Both the position numbers and the translations under genes were made by a program. Below the pieces are notes generated by a model. It was not told where the DNA came from and did no database searches. It saw nothing but the letters and a program-made list of their open reading frames with translations. A stretch of DNA of 64,000 bases, taken from a virus. Its lineage: Duplodnaviria > Caudoviricetes. Positions 5,709 to 61,583 of the stretch are shown in pieces (position 1 is the first letter of the stretch; the number at the start of each line of letters is the position of its first letter). Location of the stretch: the IMG/VR virus record IMGVR_UViG_3300032234_000392, positions 64,001-128,000 of that record; one strand, 5' to 3'.

Positions 5709-6896
5709 TTATTGTATTCTAAGCAGTATAACTTCTTCGTTAATACGTCCGTTTAATTTAATATCTACGGCTTTAATATCATCTAAGAACTTACGCAACT
5801 GTACTTTACCAGCAGCCTTAAACTCTTTTAACTGCTCTTCGGGCTTGCGCAGTGTCTTTTGTACGCTGAGATTTTCATTAAATCCGATAATTGAGGTACC
5901 TTTGACACTGAGTTCTAGATATTCTGCTGCCACATACTTGCCTAATTTGCGTGACTTAGTGTTATAAACCCACAGTTCTTTAGCACCAACAATGTCTGCA
6001 GGATTAATAGATACTAGCTTTAACGGCTCGTTAGACTTTTGATACTTGAGTTTGGCAATGATCTTCTCTACAGGCTTGGCTTTCTTAGCACGTGGAGCAC
6101 GATTGACCTTGGCTTCTTGTGCCAGCATATCGCAGGCTGACAGAATTTCATTGTAAAACGCAGTGATCTTTTTCAACTGTGCCTTAGACAAATGACTGTA
6201 GCCTTCTTTTAATTGCTCACATTCACCTTCGGCAACTTCGAGATACTCGTTATATTGACGTTGATAGATGTCTTTGATCATACGAGCATGAGCGGCCTTG
6301 GCCTGCTTGCCTTTGAGCAAGTTCAATACCTTAAATGCTTTTGGATCGAATGTTTCGGGATCTGCACTAAACAACTCAATAGCATCTTCTAGTTCATCTG
6401 TCATACGAGCAGCCGCTTCACGTAAGCGTTCTTGAATACTAGGCTGTGCTACCACAGGCTTAGCCGCTTCGATGGCTTTGGTTTCTTCATCATCGATATC
6501 GTCTTTACCTTCTGATACAACTTTGGCAATAGCTTCTTTGAGCCATTTAGCAGTATCACGACCATCATTAAAGTCCGCACGTACCGCAGGCATACCTTTT
6601 AGTAGGCAGGCAGCAATAGCACCCATTGTGGTACCGCAACGATTGTCTTTGGTCTTTTTAAACTCAGCGACTTCGGCTTTGGTATAACCGTTAGCAGTCA
6701 TCCAGTTGATGACTTTTGGCTTGAGCTCTTTATTAGATGACTCTAAGCGATACCAAGTCATAGACTGATGAAAGTGTCGTAGGAACTGATTTGTGTCCAT
6801 TTGGTCAGCATTATCCCATTTTGGACTTAGATCTTTGCCACGGTTCTCGCGAGCCTTGGTCAAATGTTTGTTTGCTTTGAGTTTTGTAGCTGCCAT
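5709..6896 (-). CDS. phage hypothetical protein (395 aa, Lys-rich)
   Basis: Long ORF with GGAG SD and upstream consensus promoter. Confidence 0.75.
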   Translation of the reverse strand: MAATKLKANKHLTKARENRGKDLSPKWDNADQMDTNQFLRHFHQSMTWYRLESSNKELKPKVINWMTANGYTKAEVAEFKKTKDNRCGTTMGAIAACLLKGMPAVRADFNDGRDTAKWLKEAIAKVVSEGKDDIDDEETKAIEAAKPVVAQPSIQERLREAAARMTDELEDAIELFSADPETFDPKAFKVLNLLKGKQAKAAHARMIKDIYQRQYNEYLEVAEGECEQLKEGYSHLSKAQLKKITAFYNEILSACDMLAQEAKVNRAPRAKKAKPVEKIIAKLKYQKSNEPLKLVSINPADIVGAKELWVYNTKSRKLGKYVAAEYLELSVKGTSIIGFNENLSVQKTLRKPEEQLKEFKAAGKVQLRKFLDDIKAVDIKLNGRINEEVILLRIQ

Positions 6897-46441: not shown

Positions 46442-47047
46442 CTACATTATAGGACCGTTTCCGTTCCTAAAACCCACTACACCGCCTTCTGCTGTGATAC
46501 GTTTTAACACATCTTCAAACAGAATAGGTGCAAAGTCTGGAGTCTGTTCTACACATACGCAATGGTATCTAGGGTCAATTTCGTCGCTGTACAAAATTTC
46601 ACCTGTTTTAGCATCAACTCCCCTAGGCTTACGAACGCGGTTAGCGTGTAAATGCCCGTGAATGTTAACTCCAAAACGACCTAAACTATCTGCGTGAACA
46701 GGGATGTGACTTAGAATCATGCCGTTCATGACATGATAAGCTCGTAATTCACGGAAGTATTCACGATACTCGTCATCACGGAAAATATCGTGATTGCCAC
46801 GAATCAAGACCTTGTCACCATTAAGACGACTTAGAGTTTTTAAAGCCTTGCGGTTAATAACCACATCACCTAAGTGGTAAACTTTGTCGTTTGGACGAAC
46901 ACGTTCGTTCCAAGCTGCGATCATAGCTTCGTCCATTTTCGTAGGATCGTCCCAAGGCCGCAATTTTGTAACTCCGTCATTTCGAGTGAAGCGGCAGACG
47001 CCGGTGTGTCCGAAATGCGTGTCTGATACTAAAAATACACTAGGCAT
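46442..47047 (-). CDS. calcineurin-like metallophosphoesterase
   Basis: SDTHFGH, HLGDV, RGNHD, HGHLH; true start MPSVF (upstream extension overlaps tRNA-Arg). Confidence 0.88.
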   Translation of the reverse strand: MPSVFLVSDTHFGHTGVCRFTRNDGVTKLRPWDDPTKMDEAMIAAWNERVRPNDKVYHLGDVVINRKALKTLSRLNGDKVLIRGNHDIFRDDEYREYFRELRAYHVMNGMILSHIPVHADSLGRFGVNIHGHLHANRVRKPRGVDAKTGEILYSDEIDPRYHCVCVEQTPDFAPILFEDVLKRITAEGGVVGFRNGNGPIM

Positions 47048-47074
47048 CTTGCCCTCCTTTCTTTGAAAAATGTT

Positions 47075-47149
47075 TGGCCCGGCTGCCAGGACTCGAACCT
47101 GGATCAATAGCTTAGAAGGCTACTGTACTATCCCTTGTACTACAGCCAG
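47075..47149 (-). tRNA. tRNA-Arg(TCT)
   Basis: Cloverleaf, anticodon arm GTAGC-CTTCTAA-GCTAT, encoded CCA; promoter TTGACG-17-TATAAT at 47158-47186. Confidence 0.92.
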
Positions 47150-47163
47150 TTAATTTTATTATA

Positions 47164-47742
47164 CTATAGAACGTATTCTACGTCAACCGCTAAGATAAAT
47201 CTATAATCGTGACTTTGCACGATACCCGGACGATGCCATTGGTTGCTAGGATATATTACCCAGTTGCCGTCTGTGGGTCGAACAAAAAACTTACCATCTC
47301 CGTCAACACCGTTTGGTGCCATTTCTGTGCCACAGTAGTCTCGGTCTTTGACATCCTTAGGAATGTGCAGATAAAATACTCCGCTCATCATTTTAGCATT
47401 AGGATTTTGTGGATGCCAGTGATTATGCCAAAGATTATCACGGTTTTCGGCACCCTCAAGATTGGTCATAAAACTCCATGCCATCATGTTTGATACTCTA
47501 ACTTCACGACCTAGATACATAAACACACTCATAAGAAAACTCATACGGTACTTTAACCATACGGATTCAGTTCTTGCGAAAATATTTTCTTTAGTTTGAA
47601 ACTTAGGAGAGTTGGTAAAATAATTACCTTCACTGACAATATTACGAATGATTCTGCAGGCTTCTTGATTGTCTTGTTCTGTAATTACTGAACTAAAATC
47701 AAACTTACGAAATACTGCATCTTGATCAATTACTGTTAACAT
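47164..47742 (-). CDS. putative Fe/2OG oxygenase
   Basis: WHNH, SGVFYL, IYPS..WHRP...RFILA. Confidence 0.65.
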   Translation of the reverse strand: MLTVIDQDAVFRKFDFSSVITEQDNQEACRIIRNIVSEGNYFTNSPKFQTKENIFARTESVWLKYRMSFLMSVFMYLGREVRVSNMMAWSFMTNLEGAENRDNLWHNHWHPQNPNAKMMSGVFYLHIPKDVKDRDYCGTEMAPNGVDGDGKFFVRPTDGNWVIYPSNQWHRPGIVQSHDYRFILAVDVEYVL

Positions 47743-47750
47743 TGTGTCCT

Positions 47751-47824
47751 TGGAGCGGGATAGGAGAATCGAACTCCTAACCGAAGATTGGAAATCTGCT
47801 GTTTTACCATTAAACTAATCCCGC
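47751..47824 (-). tRNA. tRNA-Gly(TCC)
   Basis: GCGGGAT acceptor, loop TTTCCAA, TCCA end. Confidence 0.92.
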
Positions 47825-47834
47825 ATAAAACTAT

Positions 47835-48017
47835 TTACTCATCCTCTTCTGGCGGTACAGCCAAAGGTGATGTTGAAGGCTTTTTCTTAGACCATTGACT
47901 GTAGCTGGCGCCTTCTGCTCGACCACTAACACCATATTCACATTGTGTGATCTTTCCACCGTTGGCTAAAAACTCTGCCACCGCAGCATCTACTTCAGCT
48001 TGATCATTTTTACTCAT
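47835..48017 (-). CDS. SutA-like RNA polymerase-binding small protein
   Basis: AVAEFLANGGKITQC..G.S resembles the SutA RNAP-binding helix. Confidence 0.45.
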   Translation of the reverse strand: MSKNDQAEVDAAVAEFLANGGKITQCEYGVSGRAEGASYSQWSKKKPSTSPLAVPPEEDE

Positions 48018-48036
48018 GTTTACCTTTTGTTATAAT

Positions 48037-48110
48037 TGGTTGCGGGACCCGGAATCGAACCAGGAACTACAGCTTATGAGACTGTCGAGATACCGTTTCT
48101 CTATCCCGCG
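48037..48110 (-). tRNA. tRNA-Met(CAT), initiator-type acceptor
   Basis: CGCGGGA/TCCCGCA-ACCA with C1:A72 mismatch; loop CTCATAA. Confidence 0.9.
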
Positions 48111-48117
48111 ATTGTTC

Positions 48118-48693
48118 TTACAGTAAGCCTTCTGCTGTTAGTGTTGCTACAGTATCATCACCGAGCGGAATCTCAGTTTTGATATTCAACTCAAGGATTT
48201 CGTCGTTGAGTTTTTGTTTCTGCTTCTTGAGATTTAGGATCTCAGTTTTAGCTTGTGCAATCTGTTCTTTGCTTAAAATACCTGTGCTAACAGTATCACT
48301 ATAACCGTAAAGACTGCGACGATTATTGTCACCTTTGTCGTTTTTCATCTTTTCCAACTTGCCTTTGATTACTTCTAGTGAAGTAATTTCTGTGCCTCCG
48401 GCCAACTGCTCTAACTGACCAATACGCTTGTCAATAAACGCCGCCTTGGCCAATGCTGTGTCAATACCGCTGGCTGCATTAGCAGTGCCTACTAGGGCTC
48501 GGATATTGTATAGAGCCATAGTCAAGTTCTGCCTACGGCCATCATTTACAATCAGTTCATTGTTGGCCTTACTGAGTGTGTCCTCAACATTTTGAAACTC
48601 GTTAATCTCAACTGTGAGGTCAACTCGAATATTTTTTACTGTTTCGTTGATGCTGTTTTGTACAGCATTTGCTTTACGAAGGGTAATGTTCAT
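48118..48693 (-). CDS. coiled-coil hypothetical protein (weakly DIP1984-like)
   Basis: MNITLRKAN...IR..VG.AN...LNDEILELNIKTEI. Confidence 0.65.
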   Translation of the reverse strand: MNITLRKANAVQNSINETVKNIRVDLTVEINEFQNVEDTLSKANNELIVNDGRRQNLTMALYNIRALVGTANAASGIDTALAKAAFIDKRIGQLEQLAGGTEITSLEVIKGKLEKMKNDKGDNNRRSLYGYSDTVSTGILSKEQIAQAKTEILNLKKQKQKLNDEILELNIKTEIPLGDDTVATLTAEGLL

Positions 48694-48905
48694 TTACGTT
48701 TTCCTACTAGTGTTTTTAGATAATCTTCTTTAGTATAATGTCCGTCTTCTATTTCTTTTAATGCTGACACTACAGGGCCATGTCCAGGTTCTGCCTTTGT
48801 AGGAGAACCACGTCTAATTTCTCTAGCACGTTGACTAGCAACTAATACTAGATCAAATAATCCACCTGCTGCGATTGCTGCTTTTTGCGATGTAATCCTG
48901 GCCAT
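48690..48905 (-). CDS. rpoZ: RNA polymerase omega subunit homolog
   Basis: MARIT...FDLVLVASQRAREI...VVSALKEI. Confidence 0.85.
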   Translation of the reverse strand: MARITSQKAAIAAGGLFDLVLVASQRAREIRRGSPTKAEPGHGPVVSALKEIEDGHYTKEDYLKTLVGKRK

Positions 48906-48927
48906 GTCTAATCCTTTAAGTTATAAG

Positions 48928-49190
48928 TGACGGTTTGGTAAAAGGTCAAGCAATAGACCGGACAATGAACAACGAAAGAATTATAGTCTTTCTTTGACAA
49001 TGTGCAAATAACAATACACAGAGGTTCATATATTTCCGATTAACAAATGACATTCTATTAGGGATCGGCTCACATAAACACGGTCCAATTTCAAGTTGGA
49101 TTGTAAGTTTGGAGTAAGCATGAAGCTTAAACCTGTGTGTCTATCCTCGTCTACCTTTTACTTCACCGGTTCAGTATTGCTACCGAACAA
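48928..49190 (-). ncRNA. candidate structured RNA / long 5' leader of rpoZ
   Basis: 5' GCAA-tetraloop hairpin, 9-bp long-range helix GTAAAAGGT/ACCTTTTAC, further nested helices; starts at promoter 49195-49223. Confidence 0.5.
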
Positions 49191-49194
49191 AACT

Positions 49195-49223
49195 ATTATA
49201 ACACTATTTTGCGTCTGTGTCAA
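49195..49223 (-). promoter_or_regulatory. sigma70 promoter
   Basis: TTGACA-17-TATAAT with TG extension. Confidence 0.8.
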
Positions 49224-49239
49224 GACTTTTTGGTATTAT

Positions 49240-49315
49240 TGGCTCCGATTCCTGGATTCGAACCAGGCTTCACGGATTAACAGTCCGCCGCCTTCACCTA
49301 GATTGCTCAATCGGA
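49240..49315 (-). tRNA. tRNA-Asn(GTT)
   Basis: GCGGA-CTGTTAA-TCCGT, GCCA end. Confidence 0.92.
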
Positions 49316-49322
49316 ATTATTT

Positions 49323-49404
49323 TGGTGCCCCCGGGGTGAATCGAACACCCTTTTCTTTCGAGCCTGATTACAAATCAGGTGCAATCCCACTATGCGACAG
49401 GGGC
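49323..49404 (-). tRNA. tRNA-Thr(TGT) with enlarged variable region
   Basis: CCTGA-TTTGTAA-TCAGG; G1-C72 and C2-G71; variable region CTCGAAAGAAAA. Confidence 0.85.
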
Positions 49405-49412
49405 ATACTTCT

Positions 49413-49610
49413 TTACTCTGCTACTGTTTCTTCTACTACCGCAGGAGCAACATAACCTAATCGTGTTAGACGACTGTTGATTTTAGCAATAAGTTTTTTC
49501 TTACTGGATTTTTCTCGAGCATCTAACAACTGTTTAATATTTAATGAAACTACCTTGATCTCCCCTGCCTTTGTGAAGCCAGGTTTCTTACGTTGTAAAT
49601 TTTTTGCCAT
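49413..49610 (-). CDS. small basic hypothetical protein
   Basis: GAGGA SD; sits between tRNAs. Confidence 0.6.
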   Translation of the reverse strand: MAKNLQRKKPGFTKAGEIKVVSLNIKQLLDAREKSSKKKLIAKINSRLTRLGYVAPAVVEETVAE

Positions 49611-49629
49611 ACTATCCTCTTATGTTATT

Positions 49630-49705
49630 TGGTGGAGGTTAGGAGATTCGAACTCCTCGCCTATTGCTTGCAAAGCAATTGCTCTACCAAATGAGCTAAA
49701 CCCCC
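49630..49705 (-). tRNA. tRNA-Ala(TGC)
   Basis: G3:U70 pair, ATTGC-TTTGCAA-GCAAT. Confidence 0.95.
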
Positions 49706-49711
49706 AAATAC

Positions 49712-49885
49712 TTAACCTTTGTTGCTGTCTTTTTGTCGCGGTGCTCTTGACGGTACTGCCGCAGCTAATTCTGCTTGAATCATTGAGCGACGCCATGAGT
49801 CACGTTGATCTTTGTCTTTCCATAGTCCTAGTGCTAGACTGCGTTTTGCCTGTTTACTTAATTTAAATGTTGCATTTGCTTTCAT
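49712..49885 (-). CDS. small basic hypothetical protein (57 aa)
   Basis: Hand translation MKANATFKLSKQAKRSL...WRRSMIQAEL...KG; GAGGA SD. Confidence 0.6.
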   Translation of the reverse strand: MKANATFKLSKQAKRSLALGLWKDKDQRDSWRRSMIQAELAAAVPSRAPRQKDSNKG

Positions 49886-49903
49886 AATTTCCTCTCAGTT
49901 AAA

Positions 49904-49996
49904 TGGCGGAGCATGTTGGATTCGAACCAACGGTCCAGGTTATCCCCAGACTCTTTCTTAGCAGGAAAGTGCCTTAAGCCTCTCGGCCAATGCTCC
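49904..49996 (-). tRNA. tRNA-Ser(GCT)
   Basis: CTTTC-CTGCTAA-GAAAG, long variable arm, GCCA end. Confidence 0.95.
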
Positions 49997-50161
49997 ATTA
50001 GTTGATAGTACTCGCCGTCTATGACAACGTGTCTATTTAGGAGTCCTGCGCTAACAGTTCCAAAGCATCTAACAACAGTTATATCAGACTTCGCACCATG
50101 CCAGTGGATGTCGTGTAGCGTATGCGTCCATACGCGATACCTGCCGAGTGCTATCAACTAA
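49997..50161 (-). ncRNA. candidate ncRNA closed by a 20-bp terminal stem
   Basis: Inverted repeat 49995-50014 / 50145-50164 with 1 mismatch; internal hairpin GCGTATG-GACG-CATACGC. Confidence 0.5.
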
Positions 50162-50244
50162 TGGTGCCCCAGGACGGACTCGAACCGTCACGCTTGCGCA
50201 CTGGCTTCTAAGACCAGCGTGTCTACCAATTCCACCACCAGGGC
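50162..50244 (-). tRNA. tRNA-Leu(TAG)
   Basis: CTGGT-CTTAGAA-GCCAG, class II variable arm. Confidence 0.95.
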
Positions 50245-50266
50245 ATATTTCTTTCTTACAAAGTAT

Positions 50267-50295
50267 ATTATATAGCCTTTCATCTACTATGTCAA
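50267..50295 (-). promoter_or_regulatory. sigma70 promoter inside the tRNA array
   Basis: TTGACA-17-TATAAT. Confidence 0.8.
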
Positions 50296-50304
50296 CACTT
50301 ATTT

Positions 50305-50396
50305 TGGTACCAGCGGAGGGAATCGAACCCTCTCAAGAACGCTAATCTGGCGCTAAAAGTCTTATAAGGACTCTCTGACTACCAAGTCTCACTGGC
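50305..50396 (-). tRNA. non-canonical tRNA, anticodon TAT (nominally Ile)
   Basis: Acceptor GCCAGTG/CGCTGGT-ACCA, D arm GACT-TGGT-AGTC, stem GAGAGTC-CTTATAA-GACTTTT, long variable arm. Confidence 0.75.
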
Positions 50397-50402
50397 ATTG
50401 AT

Positions 50403-50477
50403 TGGCCGGTCCGGAGAGATTCGAACTCCCGACAGCTGGTTTCGAAGACCAGAACTCTTCCACTGAGCTACGGACCG
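50403..50477 (-). tRNA. tRNA-Arg(TCG)
   Basis: CTGGT-CTTCGAA-ACCAG, GCCA end. Confidence 0.92.
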
Positions 50478-50478
50478 A

Positions 50479-50568
50479 TGGCGGAAGCGGTGAGATTCGA
50501 ACTCACGGTGCCTTGCGACACGACAGTTTTCAAGACTGCTGCCTTAAACCAGACTCAGCCACACTTCC
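50479..50568 (-). tRNA. tRNA-Ser(TGA)
   Basis: GCAGT-CTTGAAA-ACTGT, long variable arm. Confidence 0.95.
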
Positions 50569-50575
50569 TTATTTT

Positions 50576-50658
50576 TGGTACCCCAGACGGGAGTCGAACC
50601 CGCAACTAGTCTGTCTCTTGAACAGATGCGTCTACCTAGTATTTTGCGCCACTGGGGC
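50576..50658 (-). tRNA. atypical tRNA-Leu (AAG, or CAA in an alternative register)
   Basis: TCTGT-TCAAGAG-ACAGA; enlarged D loop, short variable region, A73. Confidence 0.65.
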
Positions 50659-50664
50659 ATAGCT

Positions 50665-50738
50665 TGGAGCGGGTAGCGAGAATCGAACTCGCGAATAAAC
50701 CTTGGCAAGGTTTCAGGTTACCATTACATCATACCCGC
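50665..50738 (-). tRNA. tRNA-Gly(GCC)
   Basis: AAACC-TTGCCAA-GGTTT, TCCA end. Confidence 0.93.
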
Positions 50739-50744
50739 ATTGTT

Positions 50745-50822
50745 TGGAGTGAAGGGTCGGATTCGAACCGACGGCTTTAGAGTTTTGCAGACTCTTGCAT
50801 TGGGCCTCTCTGCCACCTTCAC
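50745..50822 (-). tRNA. tRNA-Cys(GCA)
   Basis: AGAGT-CTGCAAA-ACTCT, U73. Confidence 0.93.
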
Positions 50823-50824
50823 GT

Positions 50825-50898
50825 TGGCGAATCTCCAGGGAATCGAACCCCGATCTGCGGTTTTGGAGACCGATGTAATGCCATTATACCAGAGACTC
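50825..50898 (-). tRNA. tRNA-Trp(CCA)
   Basis: TCGGT-CTCCAAA-ACCGC, G73. Confidence 0.9.
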
Positions 50899-50902
50899 AT
50901 AT

Positions 50903-50977
50903 TGGTACACCTAAGGAGAATCGAACTCCTCTTCCCGCCGTGAAAGGGCGGTGTCCTAACCGATAGACGATAGGTGC
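50903..50977 (-). tRNA. tRNA-Glu(TTC)
   Basis: CCGCC-CTTTCAC-GGCGG. Confidence 0.95.
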
Positions 50978-50985
50978 ATAAAACT

Positions 50986-51062
50986 TGGCGGAGTAGACGG
51001 GACTCGAACCCGCGACCCTCGGCGTGACAGGCCGATATTCTAACCAACTGAACTACCACTCC
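50986..51062 (-). tRNA. tRNA-Asp(GTC)
   Basis: TCGGC-CTGTCAC-GCCGA. Confidence 0.95.
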
Positions 51063-51070
51063 ATACAACT

Positions 51071-51099
51071 ATTATAACAGCAAATGACGCTGCTGTCAA
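51071..51099 (-). promoter_or_regulatory. sigma70 promoter inside the tRNA array
   Basis: TTGACA-17-TATAAT with TG extension. Confidence 0.8.
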
Positions 51100-51106
51100 C
51101 CTTTTT

Positions 51107-51191
51107 TGGTGCGACTGGCCAGAATCGAACTGGCATGGATTGCTCCGCAAGATTTTAAGTCTTGTGTGTCTACCGATTTCACCACAGTCGC
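51107..51191 (-). tRNA. tRNA-Leu(TAA)
   Basis: CAAGA-CTTAAAA-TCTTG, class II variable arm. Confidence 0.95.
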
Positions 51192-51197
51192 AAATTC

Positions 51198-51282
51198 TGG
51201 TGGAGATGATAAGAATCGAACTTATTCACCCGAAGGAACAGATTTACAGTCTGCCGCCACTCTCCAACTTAGCCGCATCTCC
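51198..51282 (-). tRNA. tRNA-Tyr(GTA)
   Basis: GCAGA-CTGTAAA-TCTGT, variable arm with TTCG loop. Confidence 0.95.
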
Positions 51283-51285
51283 GAA

Positions 51286-51442
51286 TCACACTCTTAAGAA
51301 TGTGTGTATCAAAGCATACTCAAACGAATACGCTTTGGTACGCTGTAATTTTTCACACTACAAAAAGTGCTTCATCCTACAGGCCGCCCGTTCGTCCATG
51401 TTTAGAGTGCAGACTGGGACCTCGTTTCCCTTACACACTTTG
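51286..51442 (-). ncRNA. candidate structured ncRNA upstream of tRNA-Tyr
   Basis: 16-bp hairpin at 51306-51341, outer helix GTGTGTA/TACACAC, possible pseudoknot GCACTCT/AGAGTGT. Confidence 0.5.
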
Positions 51443-51444
51443 TA

Positions 51445-51609
51445 CTAATTTACGCTAAAGGTTGGTGATTTTAACACCGCCTTCTGATATATCTTAGCAC
51501 GATCAAACTTATCTTGAATAAGTTTTTGAAGTTGCTCTTTGGTAAGAACATTTTCATAAGCCTGCTCAACGACACGTTCATTTAATTTTTCGTAATCTAT
51601 CTGTTTCAT
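51445..51609 (-). CDS. small hypothetical protein (54 aa), first gene after the attenuator
   Basis: Hand translation MKQIDYEKLNERVVEQAYE...FSVN; AAAGGA SD. Confidence 0.6.
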   Translation of the reverse strand: MKQIDYEKLNERVVEQAYENVLTKEQLQKLIQDKFDRAKIYQKAVLKSPTFSVN

Positions 51610-51621
51610 TTTGTCCTTTAT

Positions 51622-51654
51622 AAAACAAAAAACCCCAGGTTTTAATCCTAGGGT
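51622..51654 (-). terminator. intrinsic terminator of the putative attenuator
   Basis: ACCCTAGG-ATTAAAA-CCTGGGGT-TTTTTGTTTT. Confidence 0.8.
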
Positions 51655-51709
51655 CCTTGAAGTTTATGTTTAGTTATTTGTTAACTGTACACGATCTCCT
51701 TGGACCCTA
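51649..51709 (-). promoter_or_regulatory. antiterminator hairpin covering the leader stop codon
   Basis: TAGGGTCC-AA-GGAG-ATC-GTGT-AC-AGTTA-ACAAA-TAACT-AA-ACAT-AAA-CTTC-AA-GGACCCTA; 3' strand overlaps the terminator 5' strand. Confidence 0.7.
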
Positions 51710-51824
51710 CACGTAGTAAACGATCATTTGTCACACTTGATTCAATCGCATACCAGCAAGAAGGCATCACGCCGCCTAGCTTGGCTATGGATATTGAATC
51801 TTGTGTATGATATGTCGTTTGCAT
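51681..51824 (-). CDS. putative attenuator leader peptide (47 aa)
   Basis: MQTTYHTQDSISIAKLGGVMPSCWYAIESSVTNDRLLRVGSKEIVYS; AGGA SD; directly after the promoter. Confidence 0.65.
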   Translation of the reverse strand: MQTTYHTQDSISIAKLGGVMPSCWYAIESSVTNDRLLRVGSKEIVYS

Positions 51825-51844
51825 CTGTTTCCTAAGTAAGTACA

Positions 51845-51873
51845 ATTATATAGTCTTTTTATTTAGCTGTCAA
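51845..51873 (-). promoter_or_regulatory. sigma70 promoter at the head of the tRNA array
   Basis: TTGACA-17-TATAAT. Confidence 0.8.
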
Positions 51874-51910
51874 TAGATATATGGTATGATAATGTGGCAT
51901 TTTTACAACA

Positions 51911-52180
51911 TTATTCCATTTCTACTATGCCAGTCTCTCCAGCGATAAGCAAGTGTTTGCCAATTTCAAAAAGTCCAACTCCACCCGGTAGGTCAAGAGC
52001 ACAAGCATGGATCTGAGTAAGTCCGTCGCTGTCTATACTAGCAGCCACAAACTCTGTAATCTCTCCGCTCTGGACCATCATACGCATAGAGTCGATGACA
52101 TCTAGTAAATCTTGTTTGCGTTTAGCTTCAGCTGCTTCTTTACCGCCAAGAACTACTATATTTGAATCTGTTTTCATCAT
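51911..52180 (-). CDS. hypothetical protein
   Basis: ORF downstream of clpP. Confidence 0.6.
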   Translation of the reverse strand: MMKTDSNIVVLGGKEAAEAKRKQDLLDVIDSMRMMVQSGEITEFVAASIDSDGLTQIHACALDLPGGVGLFEIGKHLLIAGETGIVEME

Positions 52181-52185
52181 TGTCT

Positions 52186-52749
52186 TTATTTTAAAATGTA
52201 ATCTGCTGCACCATGCTCGACCATTTCCTGTGCTGTCATGTAAACATCAGTTGGCGGCAGTAGCCTTTTCTTAACATAAGTTGGCGGTTGTTTGGTAGCG
52301 GCTGCTAAAACATCAACCATCTTACTATTAAGCAATTCTGTTTCTTTCATTTCAGCTTTGAGATCGTGATACTTACCGTCTGTGCCTGAACTGAACTGAT
52401 GACACATACAGCTGGTATTATGGGCAACATATCGTTCACCACGAGTACCTGCTGCCACGATCAAAAATGCTGCACTCATCACAGTACCTATACCAATGGT
52501 ACGAATTTTATGCACACTAGAATTCATGATATCTATTAAGGCAAATGCCTGATATAAATCGCCGCCTGTAGAATTCACGTATAGCGTTAGTATTTTATCC
52601 TGATTAGGATTAAGATCTTCGTAGGCAATCCATTTAATACATTTTTCTACGTTTTCTTCTTCGATTTCTCCCGAGAGGAAAAATACTGAATTTTCCAGCA
52701 ATGCAATATCAATACGTTCTTCTGCATTAAATTCGGTAATATTTTTCAC
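52186..52749 (-). CDS. clpP: ClpP-family protease subunit
   Basis: FLSGEI, LYVNSTGG, catalytic Ser in VMSAA, His in MCHQ, YMTAQE..E.G..D. Confidence 0.85.
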   Translation of the reverse strand: MKNITEFNAEERIDIALLENSVFFLSGEIEEENVEKCIKWIAYEDLNPNQDKILTLYVNSTGGDLYQAFALIDIMNSSVHKIRTIGIGTVMSAAFLIVAAGTRGERYVAHNTSCMCHQFSSGTDGKYHDLKAEMKETELLNSKMVDVLAAATKQPPTYVKKRLLPPTDVYMTAQEMVEHGAADYILK

Positions 52750-52808
52750 TTGGGCTCCGTTGAATTACACTTACTTATCTCTTTGTTAATTATAGCATCA
52801 GTTTATAT

Positions 52809-53186
52809 TTAAGCCAACATAATTACGCCAATAATTGCAATATAGGTAAGATAGTGCAGACCCTGATCTGCGCCAAACCATACCCAAAACATACGATCTG
52901 CTGTGGTCAGCCCGCGATTTAACTGTTGTTTTAGCCAATCGACATGATAGTGTACAACTCCATCAATTAGACCCAAAACTACTGCGGCAAAGTGTGCGAA
53001 CGGACCCCACGGTAGTACTATTACCAATACCACAAATGTACCCAAGGCATGAATCAGGGCATGTTCGAGACCTCCGCGAGCTCCATAAGTTCCTTTTTGT
53101 GCTACCATATGAGGATACTGTAATAGGAAATCACAGACAAAATGTTTGACGCCAAACAGGGCTAATAGTAAGATTACTGTGGTCAT
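52809..53186 (-). CDS. DUF3307 membrane protein
   Basis: KHFVCDFLLQ, H.LIH, HYHVDWLK, DQGLH. Confidence 0.8.
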   Translation of the reverse strand: MTTVILLLALFGVKHFVCDFLLQYPHMVAQKGTYGARGGLEHALIHALGTFVVLVIVLPWGPFAHFAAVVLGLIDGVVHYHVDWLKQQLNRGLTTADRMFWVWFGADQGLHYLTYIAIIGVIMLA

Positions 53187-59540: not shown

Positions 59541-61583
59541 TTATTTTTCATGAGCTACGAATTCTCCATTCCAGTTATCTGGTAAATCTTGCTGTTTCAT
59601 AAACTCGCAGCGTTCAATCCAAATTTTGTAATACTTGTCCATTTGTCCACCAAATGTGCCTTTCATCTTAGCGCACACAGCAGCAGCTTCATCAAACTTC
59701 TTGGCTTTGTATAGGGCATGCATCTTTAGGTGTTGTTCTCGATCTTTACTATAATCTTCACCACGTGTTCGTATTACAGTATAAATTAAATCTGCCACAG
59801 TCTTGCCCTTAGGCTGTAAGTTATCTAACAACAAGTAGAAGAAATCATCCTTAGTACGGTTGTATGTTTCAGCACCGATAATGGCTAGTACGCCATAGGC
59901 CTTACAACGTGCTTCTAAACGTGCCGCAGTACTAACCATGTCACCTAAGATGTCATAGCTGTGTCTATCAGTGCTTCCCATTTCACCAATAAAACCGATA
60001 CCAGTGTTGCAACCCCAACCCATAGCCGCAGGTGGTAATCCTTGTGCTTCCATTAGTTTAGTATATTCATCTACAGCATCTAGCATTTCTAAACCGACTT
60101 GAACAATAGTGCGAGCGTGATTAGGATCATCAATAGGAGCACCGTGTATGTGCATACTTGCATCGCCCACGTACTTAATAACCATACCGTTGTTGTCCAT
60201 GATAGGCTTTGAGATAGCATCCATATAGCCGTTCATGTACTTGCCTAGTCCGGCAACGTCATCTCCATAGTGTTCACCGATAGGAGTAAAGCCACGTAGG
60301 TCACTGAACATTACACTAACGTCTTTGCGTACACCACGCTTGATTAGGTCTGGATCTTTCTGTAGCATCTCTACTACTTCTTTAGAACAATATCCAGCAA
60401 ACTGTTTCTTGATTGCTTGTTTTTGTAAGAACTCACTTACAAACTTAACGCCATAAGCATGAAGCATGACCAGAACAAGGCCGACCACAAGAGCAGTTGA
60501 GTCAAAGAGCCAACTAAACTGTGAGTAAGCATACGAGCCAGCGAATACACTAGACCCAATAATAACAACACCTGAAATAATGCCAACATAGGTCCACCTT
60601 GTTAAAAATAATAGTAAGATGCCTGCAACTAAGAGTGCGGCAATTTCTGCATAGTCAGCATACCATGGTCGCTCAATGTTGACATTGTTAAACATTGTGC
60701 CTAGAACTGCTGCCTGCACTTCATGAGGGAATACTGCACCTTTAGCTGTTGGTACAGGATTGCTAATACCAGCGGCAGTAGGTCCTACAATAACTACTGC
60801 ACCTTCAAGTTTTTTTGGAAGATCTATCATAGACATAGATATAGATTGTTGACTCCAATCAATCCACACTCTGCCTAGACTGTCTGTGGTAATTGGACCA
60901 AATGCAGGAATACGCATTTTGTCAACGCCAAGTTCATTCAGTTTAATCTGTGTAGTTGAATCTCCTGCTGCAAGTCTAAGAGCTTCCATAGCCAGACTTG
61001 GATACACAGTTCCATCTGCAGCTACTACTAGAGGCATACGACGGACAACACCGTCAACTTCTGGCATGGTATTAACAATGCCTACGCCCGCAGCACGATT
61101 TTCTAACAAAGGCACGTTGGAAATAACTCCGCCGTAGTTGACAATTTGATCTGAGAATTCAGACTGTATTACTGCCGTGCTAGGTTTACGTGGTGAGTTT
61201 TTATTCTTATCAAAAGGTTGACTAGGCAATACTACAGGAAACTCGTTCATAGTCGCTGCTAGAGCACCATCGCCGCCTGTGCGATCTGTTTCAGCCATAA
61301 ACACGTTAAGCACTACTAGTCCAGCACCACGTTTGTATAGATTTTCTACAAGATCAGCATAGACATTTCTAGGCAATGGCCACTGACCATATTTGTCTAG
61401 ACTGGCTTCATCTATGTTAAGTGTAATGATGTTGTTTTCTTGGGCTGCTTTGCTGGTAATAAGTGTGTCAAAATATCGCAATCTTACACTTTCTACAAAG
61501 CTAGGATCGGCAATTCTTATACCTGTTATAAGTGCCAATGTAATTAGGGCAGTCCACGGACTGAGTAATATTTTCTTTAGCAT
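59541..61583 (-). CDS. CHASE2-domain membrane class III adenylate cyclase
   Basis: IDEASL..YGQWP.PR, DGVVRR, TM helices, FSDLRGFT, KYVGDA, YDILGDMVSTAARLE. Confidence 0.9.
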   Translation of the reverse strand: MLKKILLSPWTALITLALITGIRIADPSFVESVRLRYFDTLITSKAAQENNIITLNIDEASLDKYGQWPLPRNVYADLVENLYKRGAGLVVLNVFMAETDRTGGDGALAATMNEFPVVLPSQPFDKNKNSPRKPSTAVIQSEFSDQIVNYGGVISNVPLLENRAAGVGIVNTMPEVDGVVRRMPLVVAADGTVYPSLAMEALRLAAGDSTTQIKLNELGVDKMRIPAFGPITTDSLGRVWIDWSQQSISMSMIDLPKKLEGAVVIVGPTAAGISNPVPTAKGAVFPHEVQAAVLGTMFNNVNIERPWYADYAEIAALLVAGILLLFLTRWTYVGIISGVVIIGSSVFAGSYAYSQFSWLFDSTALVVGLVLVMLHAYGVKFVSEFLQKQAIKKQFAGYCSKEVVEMLQKDPDLIKRGVRKDVSVMFSDLRGFTPIGEHYGDDVAGLGKYMNGYMDAISKPIMDNNGMVIKYVGDASMHIHGAPIDDPNHARTIVQVGLEMLDAVDEYTKLMEAQGLPPAAMGWGCNTGIGFIGEMGSTDRHSYDILGDMVSTAARLEARCKAYGVLAIIGAETYNRTKDDFFYLLLDNLQPKGKTVADLIYTVIRTRGEDYSKDREQHLKMHALYKAKKFDEAAAVCAKMKGTFGGQMDKYYKIWIERCEFMKQQDLPDNWNGEFVAHEK

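Follow-up and report, generated by a model that had tools for sequence, protein, structure and literature searches.

Leader-peptide attenuation is known for amino-acid genes, synthetase genes and a few stress genes, and tRNA genes are usually thought to be controlled by their promoters. Here we describe a putative leader-peptide attenuator that lies on the minus strand directly upstream of a tRNA array in the DNA of an uncultured virus (Duplodnaviria; Caudoviricetes). The stretch analysed, referred to as the window, is 64,000 nucleotides (nt) long and comprises bases 64001-128000 of the 163-kb IMG/VR virus record IMGVR_UViG_3300032234_000392, which is estimated to be 46% complete; within the window the element occupies positions 51622-51873. 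Related contigs are up to 340-365 kb long and the virus is therefore a jumbo phage.

The trpL, hisL, leuL, thrL, ilvL, pheL and pheST leaders contain runs of one to three cognate amino acids and govern biosynthetic or synthetase targets, and in the enterobacterial leaders the 1:2 helix gives termination without translation. The phage element shares with these attenuators a short translated leader, exclusive helices that have a strand in common and a stop codon positioned to block the antiterminator and not the terminator. It differs from them in that it contains no runs, samples all 20 amino acids across the family and has tRNA genes as its output, and no anti-antiterminator is demonstrated in it. 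Because it lacks codon runs and offers all 20 amino acids instead, we classed it as a variant and not as a member of the classical attenuators. In TnaC, residues stand at fixed distances from the stop codon and the peptide acts through Rho; the phage leader is likewise a short conserved peptide whose translation would decide downstream transcription, but its spacings vary, its C-terminus is not conserved and its terminator is intrinsic. T-box riboswitches bind one tRNA directly, with no translation involved. The sensing of tRNA charging, as we propose it here, and the use of a terminator/antiterminator switch recall the T-boxes, whereas the mode is translation-based and no Rfam T-box match was found in the region.

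The whiB7/wblC attenuator of Actinobacteria depends on its upstream open reading frame (uORF), the efficient translation of which leads to termination while stalling leads to read-through (bioRxiv 10.1101/2023.06.02.543512). The amino-acid content of the uORF was shown experimentally to set which starvations are sensed; the Mycobacterium smegmatis whiB7 uORF contains all amino acids but Cys, whiB7 uORFs consist of 25-40% alanine and often lack several amino acids, and the target is a transcription factor for drug resistance (bioRxiv 10.1101/2023.06.02.543512). The phage element has the same promoter-proximal uORF with many amino acids, an intrinsic terminator and a competing antiterminator. 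Unlike whiB7, to which it shows no sequence relationship, its leader holds 5.3% Ala (5.7% in the proteome) and is selected for completeness, its target is a phage tRNA array and not a WhiB regulator, and it resides in a large uncultured aquatic phage with sigma-70 consensus promoters. The leader works like the whiB7 switch but is not a member of the whiB7/wblC family. A full-text literature search, incomplete in its coverage, returned no account of leader-peptide attenuation for tRNA genes, for phages or for phage tRNA arrays. Relative to known attenuators, the absence of codon runs, the use of completeness as the sensor and the tRNA genes as target are new. From sequence comparison and folding, we give a probability of roughly 0.7 to the reading that the element heading the phage tRNA array is a transcription attenuator of the ribosome-mediated type and samples all amino acids.

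Results and discussion

Architecture of the leader element

A first-pass annotation, made from the sequence alone, had proposed a promoter, an AGGA sequence, a 47-codon open reading frame (ORF), a terminator and a long hairpin, and all of these were found at the minus-strand positions it had given. The sigma-70-type promoter TTGACA-17-TATAAT occupies 51845-51873, with the -35 box at 51873-51868 and the -10 box at 51850-51845, and agrees with the consensus at 12/12 positions. The Shine-Dalgarno sequence AGGA (51830-51833, read in the sequence) precedes by 5 nt the ATG of the leader ORF, which spans 51681-51824 and consists of 47 codons and a TAA stop (ATG at 51824, TAA at 51683-51681). Downstream lies an intrinsic terminator (51622-51658), whose GC-rich stem of 8 bp is formed by ACCCTAGG (51654-51647) and CCTGGGGT (51639-51632) and is followed by the T-tract TTTTTTGTTTT (51632-51622); a terminator scan placed it at 51658-51628.

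According to the folding, the last codons of the leader and the spacer behind it form an antiterminator of three stacked helices (51649-51709). H1 pairs TAGGGTCC (51709-51702) with GGACCCTA (51656-51649), H2 pairs GGAG (51699-51696) with CTTC (51662-51659), and the apical H3 is made of GTGT/ACAT and AGTTA/TAACT and carries the TAA stop (51681-51683) at the top of its stem. Since the 3' arm of this hairpin (51656-51649) and the 5' arm of the terminator (51654-51647) have ACCCTA in common, the two folds are mutually exclusive, and folding thus bears out the geometry with an apical stop that had been claimed for the locus. The minimum-energy fold of the leader is the long hairpin and not the terminator (-66.3 kcal/mol, z = -5.0, with 0/200 shuffles as stable). 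Folding of the two conformers separately gave -21.1 kcal/mol for the hairpin alone versus -13.6 for the terminator. The attenuator element occurs once in the whole record.

Both folds are conserved by compensatory change in related phages

Relatives were collected from 38 related loci reached via a neighbouring 89-amino-acid protein and by two DNA-pattern scans of viral contigs, one with the terminator pattern and one with an NDRTPE codon pattern. Together they yielded at least 115 distinct variants of the element in related uncultured phage contigs (about 118 versions among the matches listed), and the family counts given below, with denominators of 100-118, refer to variants among the matches listed from these searches. 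The H1 5' arm was part of none of the patterns used for fetching. The covariation alignment was cut at H1, and the divergent locus L171 was compared on its own sequence. Leader ORFs have 41-53 codons in all versions apart from a few with N-terminal extensions, and the stop lies 23-32 nt before GGACCC in every version.

H1 is paired in 97.8% of the cells of the relatives' alignment. The outer pair of H1 is A-U in 59 sequences, G-C in 43 and G-U in 6, a distribution that 0/500 shuffles reach. The terminator stem is 99.4% paired across the relatives, a figure partly built in, as most of them were fetched with a pattern that fixes this stem. Across the family, H1 and the terminator 5' arm have ACCCY in common. 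The base common to both helices is the Y in GGACCCYAGG, and it covaries with both of its partners. On the H1 side, a shared T faces A in 63 sequences and a shared C faces G in 45, with G-T wobbles in 6. Against the terminator 3' base, the shared column reads C-G in 47 sequences, U-G in 42 and U-A in 27, and the triplets of H1 5' base, shared base and terminator 3' base are G-C-G in 44, A-T-G in 35 and A-T-A in 26 sequences. Among 57 independent nearest-neighbour pairs, 18 differ at the shared base and 14 of these 18 are fully compensated. In L171 all three strands have changed together (GGAGTCT, AGACTCC and CCTGGAGT), and L163 and L165 have other compensated terminator variants. Furthermore, GGGTCC is retained even though its reading frame differs between relatives, so that it encodes Gly-Ser in some and Arg-Val in others; this points to a constraint at the RNA level. 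The comparison supports the view that both the antiterminator and the terminator are selected and are maintained by compensatory change at the shared base, and the covariation that the first-pass annotation had proposed to look for in both hairpins is present as a three-way compensation. The sequence of H3 varies freely among relatives, and the hairpin is always formed.

The arms of H1 and of the terminator are, in addition, far more conserved in sequence than pairing requires, as would be expected if a trans-acting factor (a protein, a tRNA or the downstream non-coding RNA) bound the apical hairpin or GGACCC and set the switch, with translation being incidental. We consider this highly improbable, since the freely varying H3 would make a poor specific binding site, and coding selection, stop placement and the amino-acid completeness of the leader (see below) would be left unexplained.

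The stop codon is placed at the apex of the antiterminator

In 118/118 versions the antiterminator folds with the lower energy of the two structures (mean -23.6 kcal/mol, vs -14.8 for the terminator). The apical position of the stop, proposed for the window, is conserved throughout the family: in 117/117 sequences the codon either overlaps with the apical loop or lies ahead of it with a gap of no more than 6 nt. Counted from the first base of H1 it comes 15-28 nt later, and the terminator stem follows it after 23-34 nt. The stop is TAA in 109 sequences and TAG in 6, and never TGA. With this geometry, a ribosome whose A site contains the stop codon would occupy the 5' strands of H2 and H3 and lie on H1's 5' strand or next to it, and the terminator would stay free. 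After removal of the RNA as far as 13 nt beyond the stop-codon A site, folding of the remainder gave the terminator as the best structure in 115/115 leaders; in the same folding, the last A-site position that still permitted the antiterminator was usually 11-13 codons before the stop. This folding around a ribosome footprint is simplified and is noisy at mid-ORF positions.

The 5' part of the leader RNA is predicted to be structured as well. In the minimum-energy fold of the window leader a 5' domain spans 51718-51820, in which AAACGACAT (51820-51812) pairs with ATGATCGTTT (51727-51718, the N-D-R codons). Similarly, the first ~100 nt of each leader are predicted to fold into a closed domain in which codons 3-8 pair with the N-D-R codons. 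In 86/100 relatives this pairing of the ORF 5' end with the NDR segment exceeds its shuffled controls in stability; in-register covariation for the domain was sought among the relatives and not found. The predicted domain might serve in pausing or insulation and might also account for the strong conservation of SLS-x-DR.

These features bear on a wiring similar to that of trp, in which the 5' domain would act as a pause or anti-antiterminator element, lack of translation would lead to termination, and read-through would occur only from a defined stall window. Such a wiring would fit a large 5' domain predicted in every leader folded, a 5' duplex that beats its shuffled controls, the small energy gap between the conformers of the whole leader (see below) and the modelled mid-ORF stalls, which sometimes gave the terminator as the best fold. 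However, in the folds inspected (the window, denoted WIN, and L002, L009 and L015) the predicted domain is not paired with the H1 5' arm and it shows no in-register covariation; moreover, the mid-ORF terminator calls reflect equilibrium folding of a long free RNA and not the co-transcriptional order. We regard this wiring as unlikely.

The leader is under coding selection and nearly complete in amino acids

The leader frame is open in 115/115 variants, while in the other two frames stop codons make up 6% and 9% of codons and just 7 and 0 sequences are open. We compared 43 phylogenetically independent close pairs, in which substitutions at codon positions 1/2/3 numbered 152/128/234. Single-base codon changes in these pairs were synonymous in 51% of cases versus 22% expected, and versus 27% and 19% in the shifted frames, and the leader has an omega of about 0.27. 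The ratio of nonsynonymous to synonymous changes (dN/dS) over all pairs was saturated and uninformative (0.79 vs 0.78 in a shifted frame), and the independent close pairs were used instead. The excess of third-position and synonymous changes indicates that the peptide is made and is under purifying selection; as judged from these substitution patterns, the leader ORF is translated and under coding selection.

The leader of the window contains 19 of the 20 amino acids, all of them within the first 35 codons and with Phe as the one missing, and it uses 31 distinct codons and no amino-acid runs, in agreement with the earlier description. Among the relatives, all 20 amino acids are present in 95/115 leaders and at least 19 in 112, and the counts are the same without the initiator Met. 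Random 47-mers drawn at the phage amino-acid frequencies contain 20/20 amino acids in 5% of cases, as do real windows of 47 residues from the phage's own proteins (5%). When residues were shuffled within alignment columns, 16 +/- 3% of the sequences were complete versus 83% observed, an excess which shows selection for completeness beyond positional conservation. In a set of 33 representatives with pairwise identities below 50%, 22 leaders contain all 20 and 33/33 have at least 19 amino acids. The caveat that such diversity in 47 codons could occur by chance is thereby answered, as the arrangement recurs with covariation in at least 115 distinct relatives and completeness exceeds the chance level. 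Each of 19 amino acids makes its first appearance 12 nt or more ahead of H1 in at least 93% of leaders (in 82% for Val), Glu being the late one. A single copy is usual for Cys, Trp, His, Tyr and Met, which explains much of the purifying selection on the peptide.

Conservation of the peptide could also stem from a nascent-chain arrest peptide of the type of TnaC, SecM or SpeFL, in which a ligand- or state-specific stall would set the switch. Trp, Asp-Arg and the block SLS-x-DRTPE are conserved beyond the needs of completeness and the omega value is low, both of which would suit such a peptide. On the other hand, Trp and Asp-Arg are separated by different distances in different relatives, as are Asp-Arg and the stop, the last ten residues are unconserved and follow the RNA helices, and the window leader reads DRLLR, with no Pro. 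The NDR codons lie in a predicted RNA helix, which offers a reason for their conservation at the RNA level, and neither completeness nor the link to the tRNA repertoire described below is predicted by an arrest peptide. This explanation thus appears distinctly unlikely.

The element precedes tRNA arrays and its amino acids may follow their content

Between 51282 and 47075, the minus strand of the window encodes 18 tRNAs. The first gene that would come under read-through control is a 54-amino-acid ORF (51445-51609, minus strand), which is 50-83% identical and syntenic in many relatives and absent in some (L009, L028). Its product looks helical and contains only 16 different amino acids, in contrast to the leader. 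Between this ORF and tRNA-Tyr lies a conserved non-coding stretch (51286-51442, minus strand; GGGAAACGAGGTCCCAG ... CGGGCGGC). A similar non-coding motif is found within 1.2 kb downstream of the terminator in 65/90 relatives and follows the terminator directly in some (L009, L028); this stretch may be the primary target of the attenuator. The genes for tRNA-Tyr (51198-51282) and tRNA-Leu(TAA) (51107-51191) come next and lie before the next internal promoter, and the rest of the array, with 16 more tRNA genes and three internal promoters, occupies 47075-51099, all on the minus strand. The internal promoters at 51099-51071, 50295-50267 and 49223-49195 (minus strand) each match the consensus at 12/12 positions and end where the first-pass annotation had placed internal promoters (51071, 50267 and 49195). 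In the related loci with at least 1.5 kb of downstream sequence, same-strand tRNA genes follow in 90/90 and opposite-strand ones in none; the arrays of the relatives comprise 11-39 tRNAs and serve 10-20 amino acids.

Could the leader be an ordinary small protein gene with its own terminator, with the long hairpin as a 3' stabilising or RNase-processing structure and with unregulated read-through? Its peptide is under purifying selection and the internal promoters could drive the tRNA genes alone, which is what such a gene would lead one to expect. Yet a stabilising hairpin need not have five bases in common, nor covary three ways, with the terminator 5' arm, and it does not need an apex stop in 117/117 sequences. 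Nor is a folded peptide predicted to contain 20/20 amino acids in 83% of variants, far above the column shuffle. The peptide has no Pfam or PHROG match, and the element always stands directly before tRNA arrays (90/90 loci). Taken with these observations, a plain small protein gene is very unlikely.

The amino acids of the leader were further compared with those served by the array. An amino acid missing from a leader was also missing from the tRNAs of its array in 12/16 cases, where a within-locus permutation expects 4.4 (P < 0.0001; Fisher odds ratio 9.6); because the sample is small, some arrays are incomplete and some cases are related, we take this link as suggestive. Phe is missing from both the leader and the array of the window. 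The idea that the leader is written in the codons of the array was rejected for this family, as codon choice is the same as in the flanking genes. Since synonymous codon choice matches that of the flanking genes, sensing appears to operate per amino acid and not per codon or anticodon. The general-sensor idea of the first-pass annotation gains strong support for amino acids, given completeness in 95/115 leaders (5% by chance, 16% column-shuffled) and the tendency of missing amino acids to coincide with missing tRNAs, and appears not to extend to codons and anticodons.

More tentatively, the leader may list those amino acids for which the phage brings its own tRNAs, co-evolving with the array such that loss of a tRNA gene is accompanied by loss of the amino acid from the leader (Phe in this case). 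The leader would then sense the loss of charged tRNAs during infection, through host shut-off, starvation or anticodon-nuclease defence, and reply with replacement tRNAs, as a counter-defence OR gate with 20 inputs. We hold this extension to be possible but rather doubtful.

Proposed mechanism and points that weigh against it

In the proposed mechanism of ribosome-mediated attenuation, the host RNA polymerase would start at the consensus promoter and transcribe the 47-codon leader, the last codons of which would constitute the 5' half of the three-helix antiterminator, with the 3' arm overlapping the terminator 5' arm. A ribosome that keeps pace and is located at the last dozen codons or at the apex stop would hold the hairpin open and leave the terminator uncovered, which would then form and end transcription at 51622-51632. 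Were the ribosome held up at any of the first ~34 codons, or not loaded at all, the hairpin would form first and the polymerase would read through to the 54-amino-acid ORF, the non-coding RNA and the tRNA genes, and this output would add to that of the internal promoters. With every amino acid present at least once, the leader would act as an OR gate over the shortage of any charged tRNA and would provide negative feedback on tRNA supply and decoding capacity. The direction of the switch, its kinetics, the physiological signal and the response to tRNA shortage or host nucleases are the parts of this scheme that we infer.

Several observations weigh against this interpretation, beside the partly built-in conservation of the terminator stem. 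When the whole leader is free, the antiterminator conformer has an average advantage of only 2.6 kcal/mol and the terminator conformer wins in 15/115 leaders; with so small a gap, thermodynamics does not fix the default in the absence of a ribosome. The three perfect internal promoters would limit strict control to the 54-amino-acid ORF, the non-coding RNA, tRNA-Tyr and tRNA-Leu. The array of the window serves only 14 amino acids, and its leader holds 19. Contrary to the earlier claim that the leader codons are those read by the array tRNAs, codons readable by the array make up 61% of the window leader versus 55.5% of the long ORFs of the genome, which is no more than chance (p = 0.28). Over 36 loci they account for 68.0% of leader codons vs 65.3% in the flanking genes, and synonymous choice is 79.6% vs 79.9%. 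The sole Glu codon is usually located ~11 nt before H1, so that a stall there is probably too close to spare the antiterminator. Moreover, the block SLS-x-DRTPE is more conserved than completeness requires, which the mechanism explains only in part.

Promoters, translation starts and surrounding sequences

Within 150 nt upstream of the leader start, a promoter with at least 11/12 consensus positions was present in 103/114 relatives, and a Shine-Dalgarno-like motif was found in 77/115. About 23 relatives (such as L039:3360-3390) lack a Shine-Dalgarno sequence and have a -10 box that stops only 6-11 nt short of the ATG; the leader of these relatives is probably translated from a leaderless mRNA. 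Most relatives (L002-L011, L028, L032 and others) have one or two extra tandem consensus promoters together with small hairpins 100-250 nt upstream of the leader start, in the interval from the first promoter to the leader ORF. The window, with its single promoter, seems to have lost this stretch. Immediately upstream of the -35 box, most relatives (e.g. L003:3272-3292) share a box of the type GTGGCAAAAATGCCACAT, which makes a 6-bp hairpin whose loop is AAAA; it is degenerate in the window (51892-51910, minus strand; TGTTGTAAAAATGCCACAT). It could be the 3' end of the mRNA of the upstream gene, or an operator.

A scan of 46500-53000 with Rfam 15, T-box included and with E values up to 1, returned tRNA matches and a few weak sub-threshold ones inside the array and none on the leader or the non-coding stretch. 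Searches of Pfam and PHROG likewise gave no match for the 54-amino-acid ORF. The leader element is preceded by an 89-amino-acid ORF and a ClpP-like gene. The latter (52186-52749, minus strand), two genes upstream of the leader, encodes a ClpP-like serine protease with best matches of 30-39% identity in large phages of cyanobacteria, Sinorhizobium, Ralstonia and Vibrio.

A blastn search with the leader region against 50,697 cultured-phage records gave no match. Among cultured phages, a neighbouring protein pointed to Methylophilales phage Melnitz and Pelagibacter phage HTVC008M as the nearest relatives found: a protein of 680 amino acids (59541-61583, minus strand) shares 46% identity with a Melnitz (Kyanoviridae) protein that has an adenylate/guanylate cyclase domain, and 34% with one of HTVC008M. 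Melnitz has four scattered tRNAs only and the attenuator motif is absent from it, so that no cultured model was found. Scanning 185,579 prokaryote species genomes for the attenuator pattern gave a single match, L219 (JBBAKF010000113.1, a metagenome-assembled genome of Polynucleobacter sp.; 5847-5925). The match lies ~300 nt from the end of a 6.2-kb contig on which ARAGORN identified zero tRNA genes. L219 is either a mis-binned phage contig or a weak hint of a Polynucleobacter-like host.

Conclusions

With a leader selected to include each amino acid once, the phage would have a compact natural gauge of overall decoding capacity, and the element could serve as a portable sensor of translation stress. 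If the ribosome-mediated attenuator proposed here is true, it would explain how large phages dose their own tRNAs. It also bears on why phages carry tRNA arrays at all, be it for matching codon usage or for replacing the tRNAs that are lost during infection or to host defence.

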